From NCBI GenBank assembly GCA_018920345.1, contig JAHLMN010000005.1:12255-76254 (forward strand): a DNA stretch of 64,000 bases, read 5' to 3'. The position numbers and the translations under genes are program-made. The notes beneath the pieces were generated by a model. That model had not been told where the DNA came from, searched no databases, and saw only the letters and a program-made list of their open reading frames with translations. How positions within the stretch are numbered: position 1 is the first letter of the stretch; the number at the start of each line of letters is the position of its first letter. The stretch comes from Candidatus Aenigmatarchaeota archaeon (lineage in GTDB: Archaea; Aenigmatarchaeota; Aenigmatarchaeia; CG10238-14). This document shows, piece by piece, positions 13,904-63,524 of the stretch.

Positions 13904-14098
13904 TTAAGGTTTAAACTTTGCAACTTTTTGTATTAGATCAACATGACTGATGAATAAAGACCTACAACAATATCTTTCTAAGCCTAGATCATTTAATACT
14001 TTTTCGCTATTCTCACCATTTTTAATTCTTTTTTGATATTCTTCCCACAAGTGACCAACTACTTTCCCACAAGAAAAACATCTTACAGGTATAATCAT
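13904..14098 (-). CDS. rpoN: DNA-directed RNA polymerase subunit N (Rpb10 homologue)
   Basis: MIIPVRCFSCGKVVGHLWEEY...LGLERYCCRSLFISHVDL shows the Rpb10 CxxC...CC zinc-bundle signature. Confidence 0.85.
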   Translation of the reverse strand: MIIPVRCFSCGKVVGHLWEEYQKRIKNGENSEKVLNDLGLERYCCRSLFISHVDLIQKVAKFKP

Positions 14099-14215
14099 TC
14101 AATCTCCTACCAATATTTAAATTTTGCAAATATAATTCTTATCCTCAAAATTTTTAAAGATATCTTTCTTAGAAACTCCTATCATTTTATATCTATTAAA
14201 AACAATTATAATCTA

Positions 14216-14497
14216 ATGAGTATAGATATTGATTTTGAAAAAAAACCCATAAAATCTAAAAAGCTCAAAATAATCTCTAATATAGGCTCACTTTATGCTA
14301 CTTTTGATGGATCTAGAGTATGGGAAATTGATCAAGCAGTAAATTATGTTCTAAGTTTATGTGATGGAAATAGAAGAATAGAAGACATAGCACAAGAAAT
14401 AGCTAAAACAATAGAAAGTGATATAGAAGTAGTAAGACAAACTTTAGCTAGTATGATGTTAGAGCTTGAGAAAAATGGTTTTATAGAATATTTATGA
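14216..14497 (+). CDS. PqqD-family / RiPP-recognition-element-like small protein
   Basis: MSIDIDFEKK...GSLYATFDGSRVWEIDQAVNYVLSLCDGNRRIEDIAQEIAKTIESDIEVVRQTLASMMLELEKNGFIEYL. The tracked ORF start at 14033 is an antisense extension over rpoN. The internal ATG at 14216 gives a 93-aa PqqD-sized protein. Confidence 0.55.
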   Translation: MSIDIDFEKKPIKSKKLKIISNIGSLYATFDGSRVWEIDQAVNYVLSLCDGNRRIEDIAQEIAKTIESDIEVVRQTLASMMLELEKNGFIEYL

Positions 14498-14740
14498 AAC
14501 CTTCTTTAACTTTTCTAATACTTCTTCTTCTTTTATTAATTTAACATATCTTTCTTTCAAATAACATAATTTTGCCACACCAACTTTTCTTTGATAAATT
14601 ATACCAGCTCCTATTAACTCGTGAACATATTTTGTAGCTGTTAATCTATTCATATTAGTTAGTTGGGCTATTTTTTGTAGTGTTAATCCTTCTGGGTGTT
14701 TTTTCAAAAGCTCTATTATTGATTGTTTAGGATCGCTCAT
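14492..14740 (-). CDS. Winged-helix DNA-binding protein (paralogue of the N-terminus of gene 18212-19069)
   Basis: IIELLKKHPEGLTLQKIAQLTNMNRLTATKYVHELIGAGIIYQRKVGVAKLCYL aligns with ILQLLSKHPEGLTITSIAEKLGIHRHTATKYVKDLILSGEINERNVGMAKLCFL. Confidence 0.7.
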   Translation of the reverse strand: MSDPKQSIIELLKKHPEGLTLQKIAQLTNMNRLTATKYVHELIGAGIIYQRKVGVAKLCYLKERYVKLIKEEEVLEKLKKVS

Positions 14741-14829: not shown

Positions 14830-15723
14830 ATGGACAAAATGAAAATAGAAAATATTTTAATAATTTCATTTATATTGGCTCTATCTATTTTATCACTTGT
14901 AAATTTTCCTTCTATTCAGGCAGCTACAAACGATACTGTTGTAATTCATGTTAATGTATCTTTATTATCAGAAATAACTGTTACTCCAGAAATGTTAGAA
15001 TGGTTGAATATAGTTCCAGGAACACCAGCAGCAGAATATAGTGTAGATATAAAAAACACAGGATCTACCAATTTCACAAAATTATGGGCAACTGTTAACT
15101 CTTTTGCTACTGAAACTACAAATCCTCTAGGAAAAGGTAATCCTTTATTATATGCAGCAGGATCTTTCTTACTTTTGAAAAATGAAACAGGTGAAGATGC
15201 ATTTAGATTCGTCAACAGAATGGAATGGAATGAAACAGAAATGCCTACATATATGGTTCCTAACCCATCTGACGCTGTGTCATGGGGTTATTTCAGGAAT
15301 TTCACTGATATCTATTTGTGGAATTTTAATGACAGTGCGACTGCAGGCGAATGCCTGAATGGGACAGAAATGCAATTTAGAATAAAGACAACACCTGAAT
15401 CTATAGTATTGCCAAACAGAGATATGACAGTCGGCACAGTAGCAGCTACATTTGAAGCAAATACAACAGAATGGAGTGCATGGAGTTTTTCATCAGGACC
15501 ATTAGCTGGATATTGTGTTTACATATACAAAGATTGTCAAAAGATAATGGTTGCACAATGGGACTATAATCAAACTTTACCAGCATGTAGCTCAAGAAAA
15601 TATATAACTCAAGAATTCTTTATGCCAAACATGATTCATACTGTTAATTTAACAGTCTATATACCAAGAGGAGTTCCATACGGTAATACTACATCGAATA
15701 TTTTAACAATAGTAGCTGAATAG
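14830..15723 (+). CDS. Secreted protein with multiple N-glycosylation sequons
   Basis: Signal peptide (ILIISFILALSILSLVNFPSIQAA) and many NxS/T sites. Confidence 0.6.
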   Translation: MDKMKIENILIISFILALSILSLVNFPSIQAATNDTVVIHVNVSLLSEITVTPEMLEWLNIVPGTPAAEYSVDIKNTGSTNFTKLWATVNSFATETTNPLGKGNPLLYAAGSFLLLKNETGEDAFRFVNRMEWNETEMPTYMVPNPSDAVSWGYFRNFTDIYLWNFNDSATAGECLNGTEMQFRIKTTPESIVLPNRDMTVGTVAATFEANTTEWSAWSFSSGPLAGYCVYIYKDCQKIMVAQWDYNQTLPACSSRKYITQEFFMPNMIHTVNLTVYIPRGVPYGNTTSNILTIVAE

Positions 15724-15990: not shown

Positions 15991-16032
15991 TGTTATAGTT
16001 AACTATAACAAATTTTGCCAAAATTGGCAAAA
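15991..16032. promoter_or_regulatory. Two adjacent palindromes in a promoter region: perfect 20-bp TGTTATAGTTAACTATAACA, then TTTTGCCAA-aa-TTGGCAAAA (9-bp arms)
   Basis: Read directly from the sequence. A third partial copy (TGTTATAGgTAACT) lies at 15958-15971. They sit immediately upstream of the ATG at 16066. Confidence 0.45.
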
Positions 16033-16065
16033 CATACAGTTCAGACCGTCTGGCCGGGGGGTGTC

Positions 16066-16776
16066 ATGGAGCAGCAATTATGGGCATTTGACAAGTTCTG
16101 GATAATATGGTCTTCTTGTTTAGACAAGCCTAGAACGCTTAATGAAATACAAGACTTTTGGGAGTATGATGGTAATGCTTTATACCAAAAAGGTTTGAAT
16201 AAACCAATTTGGAAAGAAATGCTTGAGCAAGGTTTTATAGAAAGCAAAGGCAAAGTTAAAGTAAGAGGAGTTTCTGGCGATTTAATATATGGTAAGCTTG
16301 AATGGATACCCAATTATTTAGAAGAATTATCAAAAGAGTTGAGAGTAAAATATGAAAACGAGCAACTTTTCCATCTTTTAAAATGTATAGAGAACAAGAA
16401 AAAACTTTTGTATTATATTGATACAAACAGAACAGTATTCTTTTTGTTACCTAGACTTAAAATATTGTTTGGTAAAAAAGATGTGCTGAAAGCAAACTAT
16501 GATCTATGTATAACAGCACCTTTAACAATAATATTTAACTACTATATAATAACTACACTAAAGAAAAAATTGAAGCTAGAGCTAGATAGTATATTTCTGC
16601 TTTCCCATTCACTAATATTTACACCTTTTAGTAGAATAAATTTTCTAGGATATTACAAGGCTGTGATGAAAGAATTATCATTAAAAGAGTTGCCTTTGGG
16701 AATTTTTAATGAAGCAGCGACTTTTAAATTATGGAAAGATTATGCAAAGGATATTTTGAAAGAGATAAATCTCTAA
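16066..16776 (+). CDS. Hypothetical protein (ATG start; tracked TTG start 16015 lies inside the palindrome)
   Basis: 236-aa ORF MEQQLWAFDKFW... No family recognised. Confidence 0.5.
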   Translation: MEQQLWAFDKFWIIWSSCLDKPRTLNEIQDFWEYDGNALYQKGLNKPIWKEMLEQGFIESKGKVKVRGVSGDLIYGKLEWIPNYLEELSKELRVKYENEQLFHLLKCIENKKKLLYYIDTNRTVFFLLPRLKILFGKKDVLKANYDLCITAPLTIIFNYYIITTLKKKLKLELDSIFLLSHSLIFTPFSRINFLGYYKAVMKELSLKELPLGIFNEAATFKLWKDYAKDILKEINL

Positions 16777-17397: not shown

Positions 17398-17545
17398 TAT
17401 CAAAGAGTTGAAAGAGCAGAAAATAAAGAATTTTGAAGAAAGATTAAAGTTTATAGATCTTTGGTGTGATTATATAAAAAAAACCCCAAATAAAGTTTGG
17501 AGTTCTCAACAAGCAGAAATAATAAACAGCCAAATAACAAAAGAT
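17390..17545 (+). CDS. Small hypothetical protein (51 aa)
   Basis: ATG overlaps the upstream stop (ATGATTGA). MIDIKELKEQKIKNFEERLKFIDLWCDYIKKTPNKVWSSQQAEIINSQITKDMI. Weak support only. Confidence 0.3.
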
Positions 17546-17550
17546 ATGAT

Positions 17551-17940
17551 TTAAGCAAGTTTGTAATATTTCTTTCTGTTAATAACTTCTGCTCTAGCTT
17601 CTTTATTTCTTTCCATTTCTTTTAGATATTCATTACATCTAGTTCTTGATAATCCCACAATCTCAGCCAATTCTTCTGAAGTCATTTTTCCTTTTTTTCT
17701 TAATATCATTTTTATTGCTTCCTTTATCTTGTCTTTCTTTGTTATTGTTGTTGTTTCACTATCTAATGGTGTTTTTTCCAATAGTTGTTTTATTTCTTCT
17801 AGTTGTAAAGAGATTCTGTCGATTTTTTGGTTTAATTCTCTAACATCTTCCATTAACTTAAATATATGAGCATATTGCAAGTTTAGTTGTTTATGGATTT
17901 CATCATTAGAATCCTTTTCTTGTGTTAGCAATTTTATCAT
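17551..17940 (-). CDS. Coiled-coil protein with C-terminal winged-helix HTH (putative transcription regulator)
   Basis: N-terminal heptad-rich segment (LNQKIDRISLQLEEIKQLLEK), then KMTSEELAEIVGLSRTRCNEYLKEMERNKEARAEVINRKKYYKL. Confidence 0.6.
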   Translation of the reverse strand: MIKLLTQEKDSNDEIHKQLNLQYAHIFKLMEDVRELNQKIDRISLQLEEIKQLLEKTPLDSETTTITKKDKIKEAIKMILRKKGKMTSEELAEIVGLSRTRCNEYLKEMERNKEARAEVINRKKYYKLA

Positions 17941-17949
17941 ATTCTATTT

Positions 17950-18170
17950 ATTTGTTTTGTCGAAATAAAATGCTTTTCTATTCGACACTTTTCTATTCGA
18001 CTTTTTGAAAAAACTTAGAATCGACAAAATAGACAATGCATTTTAAAAAGGCTTTTTTCTCCTTGTTTTTTTGCCTATCAAACATAGTTTTTGTTTCGAT
18101 TAAAAAGAAAATGTGTCGATTCGACTTTTCTTTTCTATATATTAGAAGGAGTTATATCAATCGACAATAT
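17950..18170. promoter_or_regulatory. Divergent intergenic region with at least 8 TCGAC-containing motifs, including a 15-bp tandem direct repeat CTTTTCTATTCGAC(A/T)
   Basis: gtcgaa (17960), cttttctattcgaca (17973-17987), cttttctattcgact (17988-18002), aatcgacaaaatagacaat (18019-18037), tttcgatt (18094), tgtcgattcgac (18113-18124), aatcgacaatattgtt (18159-18174). The pentamer is GC-rich in an AT-rich genome, so the enrichment is strong. Confidence 0.5.
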
Positions 18171-18211
18171 TGTTATACAATATTGGCCAATCTAAGAAGG
18201 AGGATATCCTC

Positions 18212-19069
18212 GTGAAAGAAGAAATATTGCAACTTTTGTCTAAACATCCAGAAGGTTTGACAATAACTTCTATAGCCGAAAAACTAGGGATACATAGACA
18301 TACTGCCACAAAATATGTTAAAGATCTTATCTTATCTGGGGAGATAAATGAGAGAAATGTCGGTATGGCAAAACTTTGTTTTTTGAATAAATACAAGTCT
18401 AGGCATATAATAGGTGAAAAAGCTGAAACAGGGCAGGCACAAATATTTGCTTTAGCAATTCTCTTATTCTTTATACCTGTTTTAATAATAGCTCAGAATT
18501 TTGGCACAAATATTACAGGTAGTTTTAGTGAAGTAATCGACACAACATTTATCACTTCTTCTAGCGATATCATAACAACAACGACAATTTCTGAATTTGT
18601 CGAAAATTCGACAGAATTAGTAGTCCAACAAGAGCCTTTATTAGTTGAAAATTACTCTGAGAATTCGACAGATTTTAATGAAGATATAGCTACTTCAGAG
18701 CATCAAAATATATCATCTTTTATCAATGAAACTAATGAAACAACCTCTAATAATTCATTAACAGAAATACAAGATGAAATTTTACAGCCAACTGAAACAA
18801 TAGAAAAAATAGAACTCGATTTAAACATTCCTAAAAAGATAAATAGAGGTGAAGAATTTCAAGCAACAGCTTCAGTATTAAACAAGTTTTCTTCGCAAAA
18901 AAATGTAAAAATAAAATGGATGCTTCCTCCTGGTTTTTCCATAATAAGAGGTAGTGAAGAAACTTTTTGTGAGCTAGAATCAGAGCAAGGATGCATTTCT
19001 GAAATAATGATAAAAGCTGAAACAGAGTTGGGGTTGCACGAGATAAAGGTGAAAGCAACTTATGAGTAA
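18212..19069 (+). CDS. Membrane-anchored winged-helix regulator (cytoplasmic wHTH, single TM, extracellular glycosylated domain); probable GTG start
   Basis: GTG at 18212 is preceded by AGGAGG 7 nt upstream and gives VKEEILQLLSKHPEGL..., parallel to the paralogue start. The tracked TTG/ATG start is 18170. TM is FALAILLFFIPVLIIA, followed by NxT-rich and CARDB-like sequence. The stop overlaps the giant gene ATG by 8 nt. Confidence 0.7.
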   Translation: MKEEILQLLSKHPEGLTITSIAEKLGIHRHTATKYVKDLILSGEINERNVGMAKLCFLNKYKSRHIIGEKAETGQAQIFALAILLFFIPVLIIAQNFGTNITGSFSEVIDTTFITSSSDIITTTTISEFVENSTELVVQQEPLLVENYSENSTDFNEDIATSEHQNISSFINETNETTSNNSLTEIQDEILQPTETIEKIELDLNIPKKINRGEEFQATASVLNKFSSQKNVKIKWMLPPGFSIIRGSEETFCELESEQGCISEIMIKAETELGLHEIKVKATYE

Positions 19070-22000
19070 TCAAAAATTCAACAAAAGCCAAGTTTCTCTT
19101 GCCTTAGCTATGCCTATATTCTTCTTACCTATTCTAGTAATTCTTCCTCTATATCTTGCTTTATCTTTACTTGTGCTATATATAGCCTTCATAAACTTAA
19201 GTAAAAAATCTGAAACAGGTCAAAGCCAGTTGTTAGCTTCTTTGATTGTCTTGTTAATAACCTCTACTTTAGTAATAGCAACCAATTCCACAATTACAAA
19301 TAATACTATCACAGGAATGTTCACAGAAGTCATGCCAGAAGAGATTGAAAAAACAGCTCAAATAGAAGTGTGGGCAAATACATTTATTGAAACTTCTGAA
19401 GAAAACAATCTTATAAAAGCTAGATTATTAATGGATAATGGTTCTTTTGTTAGCGGACAAGAAATTTTATCATATTTTAATGATCAAGTTCAAAATATTC
19501 AAATCACAGATAATGATGGTTATGCATACTTTGATAAAAACATAACTAAATTAGAATATAAAGGAAACCAAAGTTTATATTTGAACCCCAGTTTTATTGA
19601 AATAAATTATACTCAGACTTTAACTAGACAAGATTTCTTAACAGTTTTTACTGACAAACAGTTTTATGAAAGTAATGAGACAGTAAATGTTTTCGGTTAT
19701 GTTTCAATAAATGGCTCAGTAGAAGTTGAGATAATAGTTGAAAAAGACAGTCAAGTATACAAAACACAAACAATATCTGCTGAAAACGGTTCATATAATT
19801 ATAATTTTATTGTTGATTTTACCGAGCAAGGTGTTTATACAATAAAAGTAAGATCAATAGGTTTGATAAATACAACAGCATTTGAATATAGGTTGCCAAA
19901 GAAACTAAGAATAGAGGCTACTGCTTTTGCAGAAAATATAGGAAAGACAAAATTAAAGTCAATAATTGTTAACGGAAGCGTTTTTTCAGGAGATACAAAA
20001 ATACCAGCCTTAATAAAAGTAAAAATTTACAATGTTAATGGAGAATTGGTATTGCAGAGTCAAAAGCAAATTGTAAATAATTTCTTTTTCAATTTTACTC
20101 ACTTGCCGAAAACATATGGCAAATATTATGCTGAGATAAATGCTGAAACTGAGTTAGGCAATGTAAGCGAAACAATTTATTTTGATGTTTTAAAGCATTT
20201 AGTACTAAAGCCTTTAATAAAACAAGAAAAATTCAATTATGAGCTAGGAGAAAAAATAAGATTCCAAGTAGATGCTGTTGATGAAGATGGAAATATCTAT
20301 TCAGATGTAAATGTTTCTGCTTTTGTCGTTGATCCTGATGGCAATGTAACAGAAGCAAATGTTATAGCAGATGAAACTTTACCAGGAAGATTTTATGTTG
20401 AGTTAGATACTGAAAGAGAGTTTAGGCCAGGCGTGCACAAGCTAAAAGTTCGACTAAACTATATTAGTCCAAACCCAGGTGAGGTTGTTGTTGAGGAGGA
20501 AGTGGAATTTGCTGTTGGTTTGATTAATGTTAATACAGATAAAAGTATTTATTTACCAGGAGATAAAGCAAAGATAACAATTGGAGTTTTAAATAATGAA
20601 GGAAAAAGGGCTTATGATGCAACTGTTATTATGAATATAATAACCCCATCAGGGGAAATTTTTACATACAATAGTTATAATGGAGATTTTTCAACAGACG
20701 AAATTGACGGTAGTTTAGCTTTGCTTTATGATGTAAATGAAACTGGCAATTATTCGATAGATGTTTTGGCATATGGTTCAAATTTTTCAGTTAATTACCA
20801 GACATTTTTTGAAACAAGAAATTATGTAGATTTTGATATACAGAGAAAGGTAAAAACACTTATAGACATAGGACATCCAAATACAGCTGAAATAAAAATC
20901 AAATCCAATGTTAATGCAAACAATGTTACATTGATAGAAAAATTACCTAATAGTTTTTTAGAAATAACAGCATATGGAGCTAGAATAGAAAGAAAGGAAA
21001 ACGAAACTTGGATTATATGGAGTTTTAATAAATTAAATGAAAATGATGAAAAAACATTAAAATATAGCTTCACAACCCCTGATGTTAACCCAGCAATTTA
21101 TTTAGCAGGCCCATTAACAGTTTATTATAATGATTCATTTGTTTTTGAAGAATCAAAACCTTGGACATTTATTGTAGTTGATGTTGTCTATTATTTCTTT
21201 AAATTCATGCCTTATTACTATAGAACTAACAATGTAACTGATTCTGTTCAGCATATAGTTTTTAACAGCTTTGATGAATATAGAGATCCCGTTATTATGT
21301 GTAGAAACCACGAAAATTATTCTTTGAATGTTCTATTAACAGATGAAGCAGATGATGATAATGGAATAATTCAACAATGGGAACTACAAATTTATGATGG
21401 TTCATGGAAAGCAATAACAACAAATGGTGTAGCAGGATTTTATATAATGTCGGGAGAAACTAATCCTGTTTCAGGTAGTGGTGTCGGTACAACAGATACA
21501 TGTACATCAAACTTTGGTGTAGCAGGTGGTGATAAATGTGAATGGGGTGAACATTTCAGATGGAACATAACAATTAATAAAACAGCACCTTTAGGTTTAA
21601 CGAAAATAAGAGTTTTGCCAAAAACAAGAACGCAAGGTCCGATGTTCAATACAAATGAATTTTATGCTTATATAATAGATTGTCAAGATATTAATCTTGT
21701 AAGACCAATAAAAATATTTGGTCCATCAGGTGAGCCAATAGACAAAATATCGAGAGGCCATATAGCAAAAATTGTAATTCCATTAGCAAATTATAACTCA
21801 TCTTTAAAAAAGGCTAACATAAGTATAGATATAAAAGATTCTACTGGAAACTCTGTTGATTGGTTTATTGAGGAAGGAAAAGTACAAACAGTATCTATAC
21901 CAGGAACTTTAACAAGACCAAATTGGAGTGAGAAAATAGTTGTATACACAGTATATGTACCTGATGAAGTACAAGCAACAACATACAGTATTTATGTAAA

Positions 22001-49000: not shown

Positions 49001-52000
49001 AGATGGAACTACAAACAACGCTACTATGATATTGCAAGCATCAGGTAATGATGATGTCTACAACATAACATTCTCCTGTCTTGATGGTGTAGCTTGTCAA
49101 GACTTTAATGTTTCATTCTATCCAACATTCATAAACAGAATTAATCTAACTGATACAGATTTAGTAAACATTTCAGTTTCAGTGCCAAAACAATATATGA
49201 CAGGAAGATATAATGGAACAATACTAGTAAATGCAACAAACTTTTCCATGGTCGTGCCTCTATATGTAATAGTCCCAATGAACATTTCTTGGTCTCAAAC
49301 ACCTTTAGAGATTAGCAAGACAGTTTTAGGCGATACAAAAGGTGTATTTGGTGAAATAGAATTGCAAAACACAGGCAATGCACCTGTAATTCTAGAAATT
49401 CTCAAATCAGGAAATATTAGCAACTATATATCTTTATCTGAGAGCAGCATAACAATACCAATAGGTCAAACATATTTAATAAAAATAAACTATACAGTTC
49501 CTGTCATAAATCAAGAAAGCAACTTTACAGGTGAAATAATTATAAGAAATACAACAGCTGACCAACAAAAACAAACATCTGTTTCTCTATATGTATTGCC
49601 ATACTATGTAAACATAACAAAACCAACCGAAGTTGAACCTATTGTAAACATAGCATTTGGAGATGTAGTAACATCTTATGTCAATGTAACATATAGTCAA
49701 ACAATAACAGAAAATGTAACATTCTATTTAAGAATTGGAAACGAATCATTCTCACAAGCAATAGTGGTTGATTCATCTCAATTCTTACCTGACATGCAAT
49801 TATGGCAAATAAACTTCACTGCACCTTTATTACCTGAAAACAGAGCTTATGATTTAAATGTAACAGCTTACTATTCAACAAAGAATGTTACAAGAAGTGA
49901 TATAGAATATAAAGCAATAAACTATAGAGATTCTATACCACCAAATATAACATTAATAACGCCACTCAAAGTTCCAGCTGGTTATATAGCTATAATAGAT
50001 GCACTAATATATGAAGAAGGCAATCTAAAGAATGTTTCTGGTATAATAACATATCCAGATAATAGAACAGAGTATGTTAATTTTGCAAGATTAAAGAGAA
50101 CAAACAACACATATTATTATCAACACAATATAACTAATACAACTTTGCTTGGCGTTTACACAATAAATGCAACAACTTGTGACTTTTCAGGTAATTGTGC
50201 TAATGCCTCAGCAGAATTTAGCATATATCCAGCTGCATTATTCCATGGTTATTCAAAAGATTATGAAGCAGCTTCTGAGCCAGTACAATTTGTTAACTTT
50301 AGCTTATATCAACCTGGAGTAGAATTGCTTTTATTCAACATTACACCTAACATGCAAACAGGTTATTATTCTGCTTTAATAGATGCAAGATCATATGACT
50401 TGCAAGCTTCCATATTCAATTCTACTGTTTTAGCCAGAGATGTTGAAATTATACAAGATGTCTTCAATCCAATAATATTTGGTGATATACCATCAGAAAA
50501 AATAAGTCTTGGTGCATTAACAGGTTTGTATGTAGAATCTATATTGAATACAACTAACACAAGCATTAAGATAGATTATTCACCTTATATTAGCAAGGAA
50601 ATATGTAAGATGAATAATGATTGTAGACCAGCATTATTCTTTGAAGAACATCTTTCATTATTTAGATGCAACGCTTGGACAAGAAAGATTGGTTGCTCAG
50701 GTGGTTGGACAAGGCTAGATACAAAAATAAATACTACATTACACTTTGCTGAAGTTGAAGTTATAGGCAATATTTCAGGTGCTTATGCATTAGCTCCATA
50801 TATTTGTGGCGATGGCATATGTGATCATGGTTATGGAGAGTCACCGTTCACATGTCCAAGAGATTGTGAATTACCAAGGCCAGTACCTGTTCCACCAGCA
50901 GCAGGAGGTGGGGGTGCAGGTGGAGGCGGTGGTGGAGGTGCTGCAGGAGGAAGAGAAGTAAGCATATCTGTACCAGGATTGCCTTATTCAATAAAATCAA
51001 CTTTGTTATTCATCACAATAAAGCCAGGTGAGCAAGAAATACACTCTATTGAAATATCAAATAATGAAGACAAAGAGATAGAAGGCCAACTAAAAGTAGA
51101 AGGATTTGCTTGGGAAATGATAATGCTTGAAGAGCCAGTGTTTAAAGTGGCACCAAAAACTACCAAAGTAATAAAAGTTAAAGTCTTTGCCCTACCAACA
51201 ACTCAGCCTGGTATATATACAGCTGATCTAGTCACAACAATTAATGGCGAACAGCATAGAACACCAATAACAATAAAAGTTGAATATGGTCCAGAGCCAC
51301 TATTAGACGTAAAGATAGAAGCATTATCCAAATCAGTGAGACCAGGAGAAGAGGCAAAATTCCAAGTTACAGTGCTAAATATGGGTCAGACCGCGACAGT
51401 AGAAGATATAGTATTGAATTATACATTAAGGAATTTAAGAACAAACGAGATGATTTCTGTTGGGCAAGAAACAATAGCTGTAGAAGATGTTAATACATTC
51501 ATCAAATCCTTCCATATACCAGAAGATACACCAACTGATAGATATGTCATAGAAGTTACAGCAAGCTATTGGTATGGCAAAAAACAAGCTAGAGCAGCTG
51601 CAGCATTTGATGTTGTTTACTTGCCAGCACCATTGATAATATTGAAAGCTCTTGCTACAAGCTGGATCACATATTTAGTAGTCCTTATAATTGCGCCAGC
51701 TGCTGCAGTTGGCTATAGAGCTTACAGATATTATACAACTATGAAGAAGATTAAAGCCAAATACATATTCCCTGTTGATATAAAGAAGTTACCACAACCA
51801 GGACCAAACACAATATTAGTTGGTAAAGTTGCTGAAACAGATATAAATGCTTATACAGATGTCAACAAGCTTGTCATGCATAGCTTAGCAGCAGGAGGTA
51901 CTGGATCTGGTAAAACAGTATCGGCTATGGTTACAGCAGAAGAATTGCTAAAGAGAGATATACCAATAATTGTCTTTGACCCAACAGCTCAATGGACAGG

Positions 52001-52887: not shown

Positions 52888-54291
52888 ATGGCTGACATTA
52901 ACGATTTAATTTCACAAAAAAAAGAGATAGAAACTCTTCTAAAATCATTAGAAGATGAATATGGAAGAGCTCAAATAAGTGATGCTACTTATAATGAGAT
53001 AAAAAGCAAAAACATGGAAAAATTAAAAAAAATTCAAGAAGAAATAGACAAGCTAGGAGGAAGCGAGCAAGAATCTGTTGAGAAACAAACACCTGTTTCT
53101 GAAGTACAACCACCTCAAGCTGTATCTCAACCCATATCTTCTACAAATTTGGCTATACAGCCTAAAACGACTGCTGATTCAACAAAAATAAAATCTGAAA
53201 TAATGCTGGAAATAAATAAAAAAATAGATACAGAAATAAACAAGCTAAATATTGAGTTAGAAAAGATAAAGGCATTTTTAGATGCTCAAAAAGATTTAAG
53301 AACAGCTACAGATGAAAAATTGCAAAGATTAACAGAAAGTATAGGAGAGCTAAGATCAATGCTTTTCCAAAAAGAGAGTGAAATAGACAAGATGAATGTA
53401 AAGGTTCAAAGGATAGAAGAAGTTTTTAATGATGTAAAGCCAGAGCAATATACAAGAGAGTTGCAGAAGAGAGATAAAGAATTAGCAAATCAAAATTTGC
53501 GTTTAGAGAAGTTAGAAAAAATGAGCTATGATATGGTTAAAGATGTTAATGATATGAGAAATGTTTTTAAGGAAATAGGGAGTGTAGAAAATCTTGTTAA
53601 TGTAAGTAAAAGAATAAACGAAAAGTTCATAAAAATGGAAAATATGCTGAAAGATGTTGAAAAGATATCTGAAAAATTAGAAAAGCATTTTGTTGAGATA
53701 AACAAAAAATTAGAAGAGTTTGAAGAGTACAAAAACAAGCAATTACAAATAGATGGGTTGTCAAAAGATTTGTTAAAGGCAGTAGATGATATAAATATAA
53801 AAATTGGAAAGTTGGCAAGCGAAGAAGAAGTATTTAAACTTAAAGAAATGTTGAACGATTTTACCAAAGATTTAGAAGATGTTAAAAAATCTGTAAAATC
53901 TGGAATACCTTTTGTCGGACCTTTGCCAGAGGAAATACAAAAGTTACAAGAAGAAAAAGACAAAATAAAAACATTTTTAGATTCTATTGACGAGCAATAC
54001 AAATCAAGAGCTATAAAAGAGGAAGAATACAAGAGAATAAGAGAAGCAAACTTGCAAAAGTTAGCTGATATAGATGCTAAAATAAGGGAAAGTATAGAAA
54101 AGATAAAAGGAATACCTAATGTTCAGCCACAACCTATACCACAACCAGTTCAGCAGACACCTCAAATACAAGAGCAACCTCAGCAAGAAGATAAAGCTTC
54201 AAAATTGCTATCAGAATTAAAAGATTTGTACAAAAAAGGTTTGATAAGTGAAAAGGCATATCAAAAGACATCTAGATTACTTATCAAATAG
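52888..54291 (+). CDS. Long coiled-coil protein with three SHOCT-like motifs
   Basis: 467 aa, predominantly heptad-like charged repeats. SHOCT-like motifs: N-terminal LLKSLEDEYGRAQISDATYNEIKSKNMEKL, internal FLDSIDEQYKSRAIKEEEYKRIREANLQKL, C-terminal LLSELKDLYKKGLISEKAYQKTSRLL. Starts 46 nt after the giant gene on the same strand. Confidence 0.65.
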   Translation: MADINDLISQKKEIETLLKSLEDEYGRAQISDATYNEIKSKNMEKLKKIQEEIDKLGGSEQESVEKQTPVSEVQPPQAVSQPISSTNLAIQPKTTADSTKIKSEIMLEINKKIDTEINKLNIELEKIKAFLDAQKDLRTATDEKLQRLTESIGELRSMLFQKESEIDKMNVKVQRIEEVFNDVKPEQYTRELQKRDKELANQNLRLEKLEKMSYDMVKDVNDMRNVFKEIGSVENLVNVSKRINEKFIKMENMLKDVEKISEKLEKHFVEINKKLEEFEEYKNKQLQIDGLSKDLLKAVDDINIKIGKLASEEEVFKLKEMLNDFTKDLEDVKKSVKSGIPFVGPLPEEIQKLQEEKDKIKTFLDSIDEQYKSRAIKEEEYKRIREANLQKLADIDAKIRESIEKIKGIPNVQPQPIPQPVQQTPQIQEQPQQEDKASKLLSELKDLYKKGLISEKAYQKTSRLLIK

Positions 54292-61332: not shown

Positions 61333-63081
61333 ATGATAATGAGAAAATTGTCATTTCTATTAATATTTTTTTCATTTTTTATTCCTTTATCTTCTGCTCT
61401 TTGTGATAATGATAATCCTTGTCCTCCCGGATATTTGTGTATTAGTAACTCTTGTGTTAGAGCTACAACAACTACAGTTGAAACAACAACACAACCCTCA
61501 TCAGGTTCAACGCCAAGACCTCAACCCGGTGGCGGCACAGTAACAACCACAACTTACTGTGTGTGTGGTTATGTTTCTTCAGCAACATGTCCAGGTTCAG
61601 ACCCTGGAAGCAGATATTTTTATGGAAATATTTGCGGTAGTTTGCAATGTACAAAATGTGAAGTATGTCAATGTAGCGATTGGGTAAAAATAGGATGTGG
61701 AAAAGAAGGATGCGAACCAAATAAAATGGCATATAAAAGGTCTTGTTATTCCGGAAGATGCGCAACTATTGATTGTAGAAATGATATACAATGCACTAGT
61801 AATGTAATTTGTAGTTGGATAGGTAATGGGTGTTGTATTGATGGTAAAACAAAATTTAGTCTTATGTGTAATTTTGGTGAAGGACCAAAAGAAGATGATA
61901 GAGATTGTATTGGTATATGTGGCAGTTGCTCATGTACACCTTGGCAAGGTACAGGTGAAAGAGGCAATTGTCCCATAGGTTTTGAAAAACAAATTAGAAC
62001 ATGTGAACCTAAAAATATTTGTAAAGAAGATACAGAAAGATGTGTAGTTGCTGTTCAAACTCCTGTTTCACAAACATATAATCCAACAGTTCAACCACCT
62101 CCATCAACAACTTTACCATCAAACAACAATAACCCTAAAGGTTTTCATGATTCATTGGATTGTCAAATAACAACAGGATGGTCATGTGATCCTGACAATT
62201 ACAATTTACCTCTAAAAATAGAATTTTATTTGGATGGTGAAATAGGTACAGGAACTTTAATAGGAACAACAACCGCAGAAGAAACTAGAGTAGATGTAAT
62301 AACTCAATGTGGAGGAAATACAAACCATGGATTTTCTTGGCAAATACCAACTAATATTAAAGATGGCAATACACATAACATATATGTATATGCAGTTGGA
62401 GATAAAGGAGAAAAAATCAAACTAACAAATTCACCAAAAACAATACAATGTTCAAAATCCTTAACAATATCAGCAGATGTTATAAAAGATGGTTGTAGCC
62501 AAATAACAGATGCTAATAAAGACAAATGCAAAAAATATAAAGATTTGATAAGAGTAATGAGGGGAGAAAAAATCATAGTGAATGGCTATGTATATTCGGG
62601 TAATGATTTAATTTCTGGGGCAAACGTTCAAATTATTATAAAAAATTCTACTAGACAAGAGAAATTTAAATCCAACACACAAACAGGATCAAATGGTGCA
62701 TTTAGTTTTACTTATACTATAAATTCAGACTATGGTAGCTGGCTAATAGAATTAACTGCATCAAAACCAGGTTATCAAGATGGACAAACAACCTTATTGT
62801 TTGATGTTGTTGATTGCTTCAAAGATGATGACTGTCCAATTTATGCTTATTGCTCAGAAAATTTAAAATGTATCGATCTTAGAGAATTTGCAGCATCATG
62901 TAATTATTTTGATTATTGTGATAATGGAAAAATACCAGGAACTCAACAAAATTGTGTTTATGGAATACATTGTTATTCAAAAAATATACCAGAAAACGAA
63001 ATGTGGCCTTTATGTAATGATAATAATTATGCTGCACATAGCTTAATAATAAATTGCAAGTCTATAGGTAGATTAGGATGA
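61333..63081 (+). CDS. Secreted cysteine-rich protein with Thr-rich linker and CarbopepD_reg-like/Ig-like segment
   Basis: Signal peptide, more than 50 Cys in the first ~250 aa (CDNDNPCPPGYLCISNSC...), a TTTTVETTTQ linker, and VNGYVYSGNDLISGANVQIIIKN... beta-sandwich-like motifs. Confidence 0.6.
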   Translation: MIMRKLSFLLIFFSFFIPLSSALCDNDNPCPPGYLCISNSCVRATTTTVETTTQPSSGSTPRPQPGGGTVTTTTYCVCGYVSSATCPGSDPGSRYFYGNICGSLQCTKCEVCQCSDWVKIGCGKEGCEPNKMAYKRSCYSGRCATIDCRNDIQCTSNVICSWIGNGCCIDGKTKFSLMCNFGEGPKEDDRDCIGICGSCSCTPWQGTGERGNCPIGFEKQIRTCEPKNICKEDTERCVVAVQTPVSQTYNPTVQPPPSTTLPSNNNNPKGFHDSLDCQITTGWSCDPDNYNLPLKIEFYLDGEIGTGTLIGTTTAEETRVDVITQCGGNTNHGFSWQIPTNIKDGNTHNIYVYAVGDKGEKIKLTNSPKTIQCSKSLTISADVIKDGCSQITDANKDKCKKYKDLIRVMRGEKIIVNGYVYSGNDLISGANVQIIIKNSTRQEKFKSNTQTGSNGAFSFTYTINSDYGSWLIELTASKPGYQDGQTTLLFDVVDCFKDDDCPIYAYCSENLKCIDLREFAASCNYFDYCDNGKIPGTQQNCVYGIHCYSKNIPENEMWPLCNDNNYAAHSLIINCKSIGRLG

Positions 63082-63524
63082 AATTAATAAATTTACTATT
63101 AATTTTATTTATATTTAAAATTGTTTCAGCTAACGATTTTTTAATATATAACGTAGGTTATAATAAAAACAATGATATAATTATTTCTATAACAAACACA
63201 GGAAATTCTACTCTAAAAGATTTTGATGTCTATATAGATGATGTTTTAGAGAAAAAAATTAATGCACAATTAGAACCTGAATCGGCGTTTCAATTTTACA
63301 TAAAAAATGATGGTGTTAAACATAAATTAAAAATATGCTCTGAAACTATTTGTAAAGAAACAGAAATAATAGGTTTTTATGAAAAGACATATGTAAAAGG
63401 ACAAAATGAAAATAAAAAAATTGATTACATGAAAATAGCTTTAGTTTTGATAATATTAATAATTTTAGGAATAATAATTTTGCTTTTAGTAAATAAAAAA
63501 ACATTTAAAAACTTTTCTATTTAA
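63078..63524 (+). CDS. Hypothetical protein with signal peptide and C-terminal TM anchor
   Basis: N-terminal LLILFIFKIVSA and C-terminal IALVLIILIILGIIILLLV. ATGA overlap with the upstream gene. Confidence 0.5.
   Translation: MKLINLLLILFIFKIVSANDFLIYNVGYNKNNDIIISITNTGNSTLKDFDVYIDDVLEKKINAQLEPESAFQFYIKNDGVKHKLKICSETICKETEIIGFYEKTYVKGQNENKKIDYMKIALVLIILIILGIIILLLVNKKTFKNFSI

Follow-up and report, generated by a model that had tools for sequence, protein, structure and literature searches.

Transmembrane transcription regulators, in which a predicted DNA-binding domain and at least one predicted membrane region are combined in one protein, are common in archaea with about four per genome, and single-pass forms predominate among them (Demey et al., 2023; PMC10269533). 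Membrane regulators of this domain of life include ArnR and ArnR1 of Sulfolobus, of which ArnR controls surface-appendage genes (PMC6396743). In this work we analysed a stretch of 64,000 nucleotides (the window) from a Candidatus Aenigmatarchaeota archaeon, in which a small gene at positions 18212-19069 encodes a membrane-anchored protein with an N-terminal winged helix and overlaps the start of the gene for a giant surface protein. For DPANN archaea such as Aenigmatarchaeota, a life in attachment to hosts is presumed, and we know of no account of how their contact apparatus is controlled.

The small protein falls under the definition of Demey et al., with a match to Pfam HTH_11 above the cut-off and one predicted membrane helix, and on sequence and model it has the predicted layout of a transmembrane transcription regulator. 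Like the surveyed regulators it joins a helix-turn-helix and a membrane span in one polypeptide; unlike them, it has homologues without the winged helix that are structural partners of the giant surface protein, its anchor has a paralogue in the giant with which it is co-translated, and the domain is fused to the giant in sister lineages. ArnR has C-terminal membrane spans and HAMP-like features, and is not known to have an ectodomain of the small protein's kind.

An earlier note on this DNA, made from the sequence alone, had called the small protein ToxR/CadC-like. The bacterial proteins ToxR, TcpP and CadC do share its layout, with a winged helix in the cytoplasm, a single membrane helix and a domain outside, and their co-transcribed membrane partner is encoded downstream (toxS, tcpH), as the giant gene is here; for TcpP and CadC proteolytic control exists. 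They differ in having an OmpR/PhoB-type domain (Trans_reg_C) and other sensor folds, and in being bacterial activators of direct-repeat promoters. Membership of the ToxR/CadC family was rejected, since neither the Trans_reg_C domain nor the CadC/ToxR sensor fold was found when both were tested. The likeness is thus one of layout and not of descent, the ectodomain being macroglobulin/CARDB-like.

We propose that the small protein is a membrane partner of the giant protein, that it would be inserted with the N-terminus inside and the C-terminus outside (N-in/C-out) by an anchor module that the giant also carries, and that both would be produced from one transcript by coupled translation. In this Aenigmatarchaeota lineage the partner has gained a cytoplasmic MarR/HTH_11-type winged helix, probably from a neighbouring soluble paralogue of 82 amino acids. 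The winged helix might bind as a dimer to a dyad in its own operon, located after the TATA-like box and before the ribosome-binding site, and thereby repress the promoter, so that the output of the operon would be fed back from the membrane. An array of TCGACA boxes would form a separate control layer, through which an HTH_24 regulator might govern both divergent promoters. Taken as a whole, a small partner with a winged helix that feeds back on its own operon promoter appears to us evenly poised between right and wrong. The sequences and models show the domain architecture, the signs of topology, the homology of the anchors, the kept overlap, the three types of cassette and the joint occurrence of each DNA element with one of the two regulators; DNA binding, the sign of the regulation, the pairing in the membrane and the choice between tethered and released action are the parts of it that we infer.

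Domain Architecture and Predicted Topology of the Small Protein

The small gene and the parts of its product are as follows:

18212-19069, forward strand: small gene, encoding a bitopic protein of 285 amino acids, the putative small partner of the giant protein (open reading frame and translation, homologues, AlphaFold2)
18212-18391, forward strand: winged helix-turn-helix, residues 1-60 (Pfam HTH_11/HTH_IclR, AlphaFold2 model)
18419-18499, forward strand: anchor module, with the junction K70-x-E-x-G74-Q75-x-Q77, then the membrane helix Q75-N96 with a conserved P89 (alignment, profile)
18500-18796, forward strand: predicted extracellular, glycosylated stalk, residues 97-195 (disorder prediction, composition, sequon positions)
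18797-19066, forward strand: macroglobulin/CARDB-like beta-sandwich, residues 196-285 (predicted local distance difference test (pLDDT) >90, Foldseek, homologue profiles)

The open reading frame (ORF) begins with GTG at 18212 and stops with TAA at 19069, and the motif AGGAGGA at 18198-18204, 8 nucleotides 5' of the GTG, provides a ribosome-binding site. Full-length homologues numbered 22, and the near-identical and related proteins come from Aenigmatarchaeota metagenome-assembled genomes (MAGs). The AlphaFold2 model of the small protein was built on an alignment of 20 sequences.

The N-terminal winged helix-turn-helix which the earlier note had read from the letters could be confirmed. Residues 3-43 match Pfam HTH_11 (E 4e-7, 30.3 bits, cut-off 25), and the cut-offs of HTH_IclR (24.2 against 22) and HTH_24 (21.9 against 21.9) are reached as well. 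Residues 1-60 were modelled with pLDDT >90 in the H1-H2-H3-wing fold, with helices at residues 2-11, 18-25 and 29-41 and strands at 45-50 and 53-58, and the recognition helix opens with H28-R29-H30-T31-x-T33-K34, which is invariant in 20 homologues with identities down to 31%. Trans_reg_C (OmpR-type) is absent among the 17 families matched in Pfam at E<=0.1, all of which are of the HTH_11/IclR/MarR type, and the model is without the N-terminal beta-sheet typical of the OmpR type. The DNA-binding domain of the small protein is therefore MarR/HTH_11-type and not OmpR-type. With the MarR, IclR and HTH_11 regulators it shares profile matches above cut-off, the H1-H2-H3-wing fold and a palindromic candidate operator; unlike MarR or IclR, it is a bare 60-residue DNA-binding module without dimerisation or effector domains, tethered to a membrane helix.

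One membrane helix is modelled at residues 71-94, with a hydrophobic core at Q75-N96, and is flanked by four K/R on its N-terminal side and none on its C-terminal side. All eight N-x-S/T sequons, and likewise the conserved pair C253/C261, lie C-terminal to it. Because of this flank bias, and because the sequons and the cysteine pair are all located beyond the helix, an N-in/C-out topology is predicted, in agreement with the cytoplasmic DNA-binding domain and the NxT-rich extracellular part described before. The stalk (residues 97-195) is devoid of K and R and holds all eight sequons; residues 101-195 have pLDDT <50 and are predicted to be disordered. It leads to a beta-sandwich with the conserved residues W236 and C253/C261, whose top matches in the PDB are macroglobulin domains of C3, C4, C5 and CVF (Foldseek E 2e-5). 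Pfam A2M remains just under its cut-off for the small protein (20.5 against 21), while in homologues the sandwich reaches the cut-offs of NPCBM_assoc and DUF11 and stays just under that of CARDB, so that the earlier description of a CARDB-like ectodomain is fair at the level of the fold. A weak profile resemblance was found between the beta-sandwich and residues 2149-2240 of the giant protein.

An Anchor Module Common to the Small and the Giant Protein

Residues 67-109 of the small protein align with residues 46-91 of the giant protein (41% identity, BLASTP E 9e-6). The Smith-Waterman score of 82 corresponds to z=13 against 2000 full shuffles and z=8.4 against 2000 segment-preserving shuffles, and no shuffle of either set reached it. 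The homology between the two anchors that had been noted is thus significant, but it does not involve the very N-terminus of the giant, which here carries the module at residues 47-93 (nucleotides 19200-19340) after a hydrophobic hairpin (residues 9-48). In the giants of distant relatives the module is found at the extreme N-terminus, e.g., MKHKGYSGQSQLL... A profile built from small proteins only, run against 1115 ORF segments, found giant N-termini in most of 12 loci (nine giant ORFs, of which seven had E values from 1e-7 to 1e-5); at E<0.2 it matched no further ORF. The consensus of the module reads K-x-E-x-G-Q-x-Q, after which come about 20 hydrophobic residues, a conserved Pro among them, and then A-Q/T-N, sequons and T-G-x-F. 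A 45-residue anchor profile recovered only two giant N-terminal fragments from an index of 5.8 billion proteins, this word-indexed search being too insensitive, and the anchor family came to light because an exhaustive profile search was used, which yielded 1731 cluster representatives at E<=1e-3.

The junction ahead of the hydrophobic stretch was compared across 102 sequences of the family. G occupies position -1 in 84 of them and S or A in four more, Q occupies +1 in 95, and position -2 is T in the small protein and K in about 20 of the 102, the conserved K being located at -5. In homologues without the winged helix the leader ahead of the anchor is variable and basic, with a length of 6-38 residues (median 18.5).

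This arrangement recalls the class III signals cut by the archaeal peptidase EppA, which have a small residue at -1, Gln at +1 and about 20 hydrophobic residues retained on the mature protein (PMC4371748, PMC4858521); EppA-type proteins moreover have a beta-sandwich globular domain and heavy N-glycosylation, both of which are predicted here as well. The anchor might hence be a prepilin-type (class III-like) signal, and a cut by a membrane peptidase after G74 on the cytoplasmic face would free the 74-residue winged helix, one per exported partner, whereas forms without the winged helix would lose a short leader; assembly at the surface would in this manner be reported to the promoter. Several features speak for such a release. 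No other feature of the module is as well conserved as the junction, which precedes some 20 hydrophobic residues and has Q at +1, as EppA substrates do (PMC4371748); the module stands at the extreme N-terminus behind the variable basic leader of 6-38 residues in 49 cluster representatives; a canonical K-G/Q or K-S/Q (the slash marking the junction) occurs in P0105, P0085, P0151 and P0128; the region before the junction is interchangeable, a winged helix taking the place that a short tail or a hydrophobic hairpin has in other members; and the soluble paralogue has the same size as the predicted freed fragment. However, the small protein has T at position -2, where only about 20% of members have K/R, the conserved K stands at -5, the E at +5 of the EppA type is absent, and class III signal or pilin models in Pfam and NCBIfam gave no match for four anchor segments even at E<=10. 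P0028 has V at -1, and P0098, a small protein without the winged helix, is without the motif entirely. Furthermore, the leader would be a folded domain of 74 residues, for which we know of no precedent, and not a short charged N-region, the disordered stalk of about 100 residues between the helix and the globular domain is unlike known pilins, and the cassette showed neither peptidase nor pilus-assembly genes. On balance we regard the release of the winged helix, the main rival of the feedback proposed above, as doubtful. It would imply that the leader is a complete winged-helix transcription factor and that each processing event frees one repressor or one competitor of the soluble paralogue, which we hold to be rather unlikely; if true, transcription would be tied stoichiometrically to the assembly of a giant structure for host contact. 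To our knowledge, no case of a folded transcription factor as a cleavable signal-peptide leader has been described.

Cleavage by signal peptidase I after the helix was rejected as well, since the conserved A-Q-N breaks the -3/-1 rule when the sequence is read by eye. A look for class III-like N-termini among the other ORFs of the window and the loci gave none that was informative.

The Giant Gene and Its Predicted Coupling to the Small Gene

Two further features belong to the downstream gene:

19062-52841, forward strand: giant gene, encoding 11,259 amino acids (ORF, profile and structure matches)
19062-19069, forward strand: overlap ATGAGTAA of the giant start and the small stop, a putative translational coupling site (sequence, conserved overlap)

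The gene overlap described in the earlier note is real and amounts to 8 nucleotides here, and an overlap of 4-11 nucleotides is kept in every split locus examined (L001-L005, L009-L011 and further split loci). The two genes are almost certainly co-expressed. The stop/start overlap together with a single transcript would lead to co-production of the small protein and the giant and probably to their pairing in the membrane.

The extracellular part of the giant comprises about 10,760 amino acids with 516 sequons and 181 Cys, and is followed by a second membrane helix (residues 10857-10884) and a C-terminal P-loop domain of about 375 amino acids (GTGSGKT; 51630-52841), predicted to be cytoplasmic. 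The P-loop domain matches DUF87 (HerA central, 8.5e-10), HerA_C, T4SS-DNA_transf and solved HerA structures. Given the anchor module, the second helix and the P-loop domain, the extracellular region would be membrane-anchored at both ends, with an ATPase inside. Directly 3' of the giant gene, at 52888-54291 on the forward strand, a protein of 467 amino acids is encoded which by eye is near-wholly coiled coil, with a weak SHOCT-like C-terminus.

Since the giant ends in a membrane helix and a HerA/FtsK-type ATPase domain, the winged helix might also be the DNA-handling accessory of a transfer machine, which recognises repeated motifs and loads DNA for transport across the envelope. Parallels would be FtsK, whose gamma domain goes with KOPS, and TraB with its clt repeats. 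In the fused forms described below, judged from their N-terminal parts, one polypeptide would have the winged helix at one cytoplasmic end and the ATPase at the other, and the repeated boxes run into coding sequence. Yet the conserved DNA elements are located exactly at the promoter positions of two divergent genes, beside TATA-like boxes; the locus lies on the chromosome, in synteny with genes for tRNA synthetase and RNA polymerase subunits; the giant is kept in cassettes without the winged helix, so that the domain is not needed; and HerA-type ATPases are not restricted to DNA transport. A role in DNA transfer is thus most improbable.

Split, Fused and Domain-Less Forms of the Cassette

A cassette consisting of the divergent HTH_24 regulator, the small anchor protein and the overlapping giant was found in about 50 loci, mostly from Aenigmatarchaeota MAGs; the metagenome scan for further loci used an alignment of 11 sequences. 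No published description of this cassette was found in literature searches on giant proteins in Aenigmatarchaeota or DPANN. The cassettes are of three types. Split cassettes with the winged helix are found in the window, in L001-L006 and in many further loci, split cassettes without it in L008-L011 (including one with a giant of 12,662 amino acids) and L043-L054, and fused cassettes, with the winged helix on the giant, in L012, L013, L026-L028, L031-L033 and L035. An intact winged helix plus anchor opens giant-type ORFs of 636 to >2853 residues in P0066, P0070, P0076, P0094, P0097 and P0088, fusions by which the domain is physically linked to the giant. In the fused form of locus L007 (8001-10101, P0031) the recognition helix and the wing have been lost by an in-frame deletion of about 40 residues, while the promoter elements are largely kept. 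Some of the Aenigmatarchaeota giant-type homologues (L007 with P0031, L013 with P0094, and P0088) carry a Hint/intein-like insertion. The fused protein P0070 has been deposited under a Peribacteraceae (candidate phyla radiation) MAG, probably a binning error given the archaeal cassette.

The classification covered 165 family proteins, i.e., the listed representatives and the 22 full-length homologues. Among them, 49 cluster representatives combine the anchor and the beta-sandwich but lack the winged helix, against 42 of full architecture, so that the domain-less form is at least as common. The anchor module is already common to the small protein and the giant in cassettes of the domain-less type. 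The earlier suggestion that the regulator was built from a piece of its target consequently has the history reversed: as the forms without the domain already have the shared anchor and other lineages fuse the domain to the giant, the winged helix was added later to a structural partner. Judged from these sequences, the shared anchor is older than the winged helix, and the latter is best described as an accessory domain of the giant-protein complex that can be placed on either subunit. New in this cassette are the presence of such a domain on the structural partner of the giant, an anchor paralogous to the co-translated giant, and the natural fused, split and domain-less forms.

Candidate Operators in the Control Region

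The region between and within the divergent genes contains the following elements:

17551-17940, reverse strand: divergent gene for an HTH_24/TrmB-like regulator with coiled coil, 129 amino acids (Pfam, alignment, locus contexts)
17958-18166, no strand assigned: TCGAC(A) array of seven boxes, candidate operator of the divergent HTH_24 regulator (enrichment, conserved positions)
18152-18159, forward strand: TATA-like TTATATCA, putative promoter of the small/giant operon (invariant columns, four-locus alignment)
18164-18191, no strand assigned: dyad ACAATATTGT-TAT-ACAATATTGG, overlapping the palindrome ATTGGCCAAT; candidate operator of the winged helix (perfect arms, invariant block)
18537-18670, no strand assigned: four TCGACA boxes inside coding sequence, at 18537, 18598 (reverse), 18608 and 18665 (conserved positions)

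The dyad of the window (18164-18186) has perfect 9-nucleotide arms and is a diverged form of TGTACA-N4-TGTACA. It lies between TTATATCA and the ribosome-binding site, within a block of 40 nucleotides that is near-invariant across four loci. The 16-bp dyad TGTACA-N4-TGTACA or the core ACAATATTGT occurs in 32 of the 34 non-redundant cassettes with the winged helix and in none of the six without it; the first residue of the winged helix is encoded 39-112 nucleotides (mostly 40-80) further downstream. The half-sites are preserved, in contrast to the four nucleotides at the centre, which vary, and the dyad-bearing winged-helix cassettes span 30% to 49% G+C and protein identities down to about 30%. 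No dyad with this spacing was found elsewhere in about 500 kb, where the other matches were off-spacing and inside giant coding sequence. Because the dyad tracks the winged helix, it is a likelier operator of this domain than the TCGACA array. Its position would block initiation, from which autorepression is suggested, and the autoregulation of the locus envisaged in the earlier note appears plausible from the sequence. In several clades a palindrome centred on GGCCA (ATTGGCCAAT or TTTGGCCAAA) stands next to the dyad, on either side of it, at 18182-18191 in the window and in the upstream regions of L005, L016 and L019; it may belong to the same operator or constitute a site of its own.

Several points weigh against feedback through the dyad. 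All winged-helix cassettes come from one phylum and only six non-redundant cassettes without the domain were sampled, so that the correlation between dyad and winged helix may go back to a single ancestral event. The clade of the window has the diverged dyad, and L006 and L025 are without an exact match. The linker from the wing to the membrane helix is only about 12-16 residues long, which may hinder a tethered dimer in reaching the DNA. L007 has lost the recognition helix yet keeps a near-intact dyad, and the winged helix is thus dispensable in at least one lineage. Finally, an RNA hairpin in the 5' leader could instead be the role of the 16-nucleotide palindrome. An Rfam scan of 17400-19400 (E<=1) gave two sub-threshold chance matches only.

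The TCGAC array had been noticed before, and it is real, with seven copies in 17959-18165; in the whole window, which has 30.7% G+C, TCGAC occurs 35 times against 13.4 expected. The hexamer TCGACA/TGTCGA occurs nine times in 17941-19069 against 0.23 expected (Poisson P 5e-12). The boxes of the array are located at 17958-63 (reverse), 17982-87, 17997-18001, 18021-26, in the palindrome TGTCGATTCGAC at 18114-18125, and at 18161-66, and their positions are conserved between the window, L001, L002 and L006. In layout, a TGTCGA(N0-1)TCGACA palindrome is placed beside the start of the divergent gene and another box directly after the forward TATA-like element. TCGACA boxes occur in all three cassette types, including those without the winged helix (L008-L011) and L007 with its deleted recognition helix; several individual loci have none within the region scanned.

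The earlier note had named this array as DNA on which to test binding by the small protein, which it took for a ToxR/CadC-like regulator that could sense an external ligand or surface; in such a model, the sensor would activate the giant gene by binding the array. The layout of the protein is the same, and the array is real and conserved. However, the array is present where the winged helix is absent or deleted, for which reason it was rejected as the operator of the membrane protein; the domain is not OmpR-type, the ectodomain does not have the CadC or ToxR sensor fold, and it is a conserved structural module older than the winged helix. We therefore consider such a sensor improbable. As the boxes occur without the winged helix, and HTH_24 in nearly all cassettes, we assign the array to the latter as a candidate operator of the divergent regulator. 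The gene for this HTH_24 protein is found in all cassette loci except L010, L046 and L055, two of these contigs being shorter than 2 kb. Across cassettes it encodes about 130-165 amino acids with an invariant recognition helix LSRTRCxEY; since the recognition helices are invariant in both regulators, conservation does not separate the two.

Four boxes lie inside the small gene. Those at 18608 and 18665 read Ser(TCG)-Thr(ACA) in 'ENST', and as a group the intragenic boxes lie in two reading frames, 'IDT' and 'xST'. TCG accounts for 2.7% of the Ser codons in the giant gene, and both S-T dipeptides at these boxes use TCG-ACA. Their positions are conserved in L001, L002, L005, L006 and L007. The rare Ser codon and the conserved positions suggest selection at the DNA level within the small gene, and the boxes could serve extended binding by HTH_24 or as an internal control point before the giant gene.

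A Soluble Paralogue and the Chromosomal Neighbourhood

One further winged-helix gene is encoded 3.5 kb upstream of the membrane-bound form:

14492-14740, reverse strand: soluble winged-helix paralogue, 82 amino acids (about 50% identity to the membrane winged helix; synteny in L001, L002 and L006)

It is located between a PqqD-like ORF (14033-14497, forward strand) and the gene for a secreted protein of 297 amino acids (14830-15723, forward strand). By eye, the winged helices of distant members of the family are closer to it. Neither a TCGAC nor a dyad element was found in its short intergenic region. On sequence grounds this paralogue is likely the source of the fused winged helix. Its existence also raises the possibility that the membrane winged helix binds no DNA and titrates the soluble paralogue, or another factor, at the membrane by heterodimerisation, much as Mlc is held by PtsG in E. 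coli. A soluble paralogue of such identity, encoded so near and syntenic in related genomes, would suit this role; yet the recognition helix of the membrane form has invariant residues, as expected for base contacts, and the soluble paralogue was not seen near the distant cassettes L003 and L005. Titration seems very improbable to us, and we prefer direct binding of the membrane winged helix to the dyad.

The neighbours in the window are ordinary chromosomal genes, among them those for tRNA synthetases, a THUMP-domain protein and Sua5. A protein of 253 amino acids is encoded directly upstream of the divergent regulator, at 16015-16776 on the forward strand; counterparts at this place in L001, L002 and L006 bring the size range to 236-254 amino acids, and an ORF of the same size in L003 shares only 22% identity with it. 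This protein may be a fourth member of the cassette. In two loci without the winged helix, a gene for a MinD/ParA-family ATPase adjoins the divergent regulator or is one gene away from it (L008 1-708, L011 8625-9371). Since ATPases of this family have been reported in archaeal type IV pilus loci (PMC4858521), these neighbours might be a weak hint, by analogy, of a pilus-like assembly pathway. Further downstream in the window, at 61333-63081 on the forward strand, a secreted and very cysteine-rich protein of 582 amino acids without a Pfam match is encoded, next to a predicted surface protein at 63078-63524.

Conclusion

About 34 kb of a small genome are spent on one surface protein with, as predicted, both ends in the membrane and a HerA-type ATPase in the cytoplasm. 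For the cassette to which it belongs, a regulatory layout can now be proposed that comprises two winged-helix proteins and two distinct conserved candidate operators, and the natural variants, which are split, without the winged helix, fused or domain-deleted, represent a ready-made genetic series. The anchor module is a candidate for a new membrane-targeting or processing signal common to more than 100 protein clusters. The cassette also makes a readout of transcription from the membrane testable in archaea.

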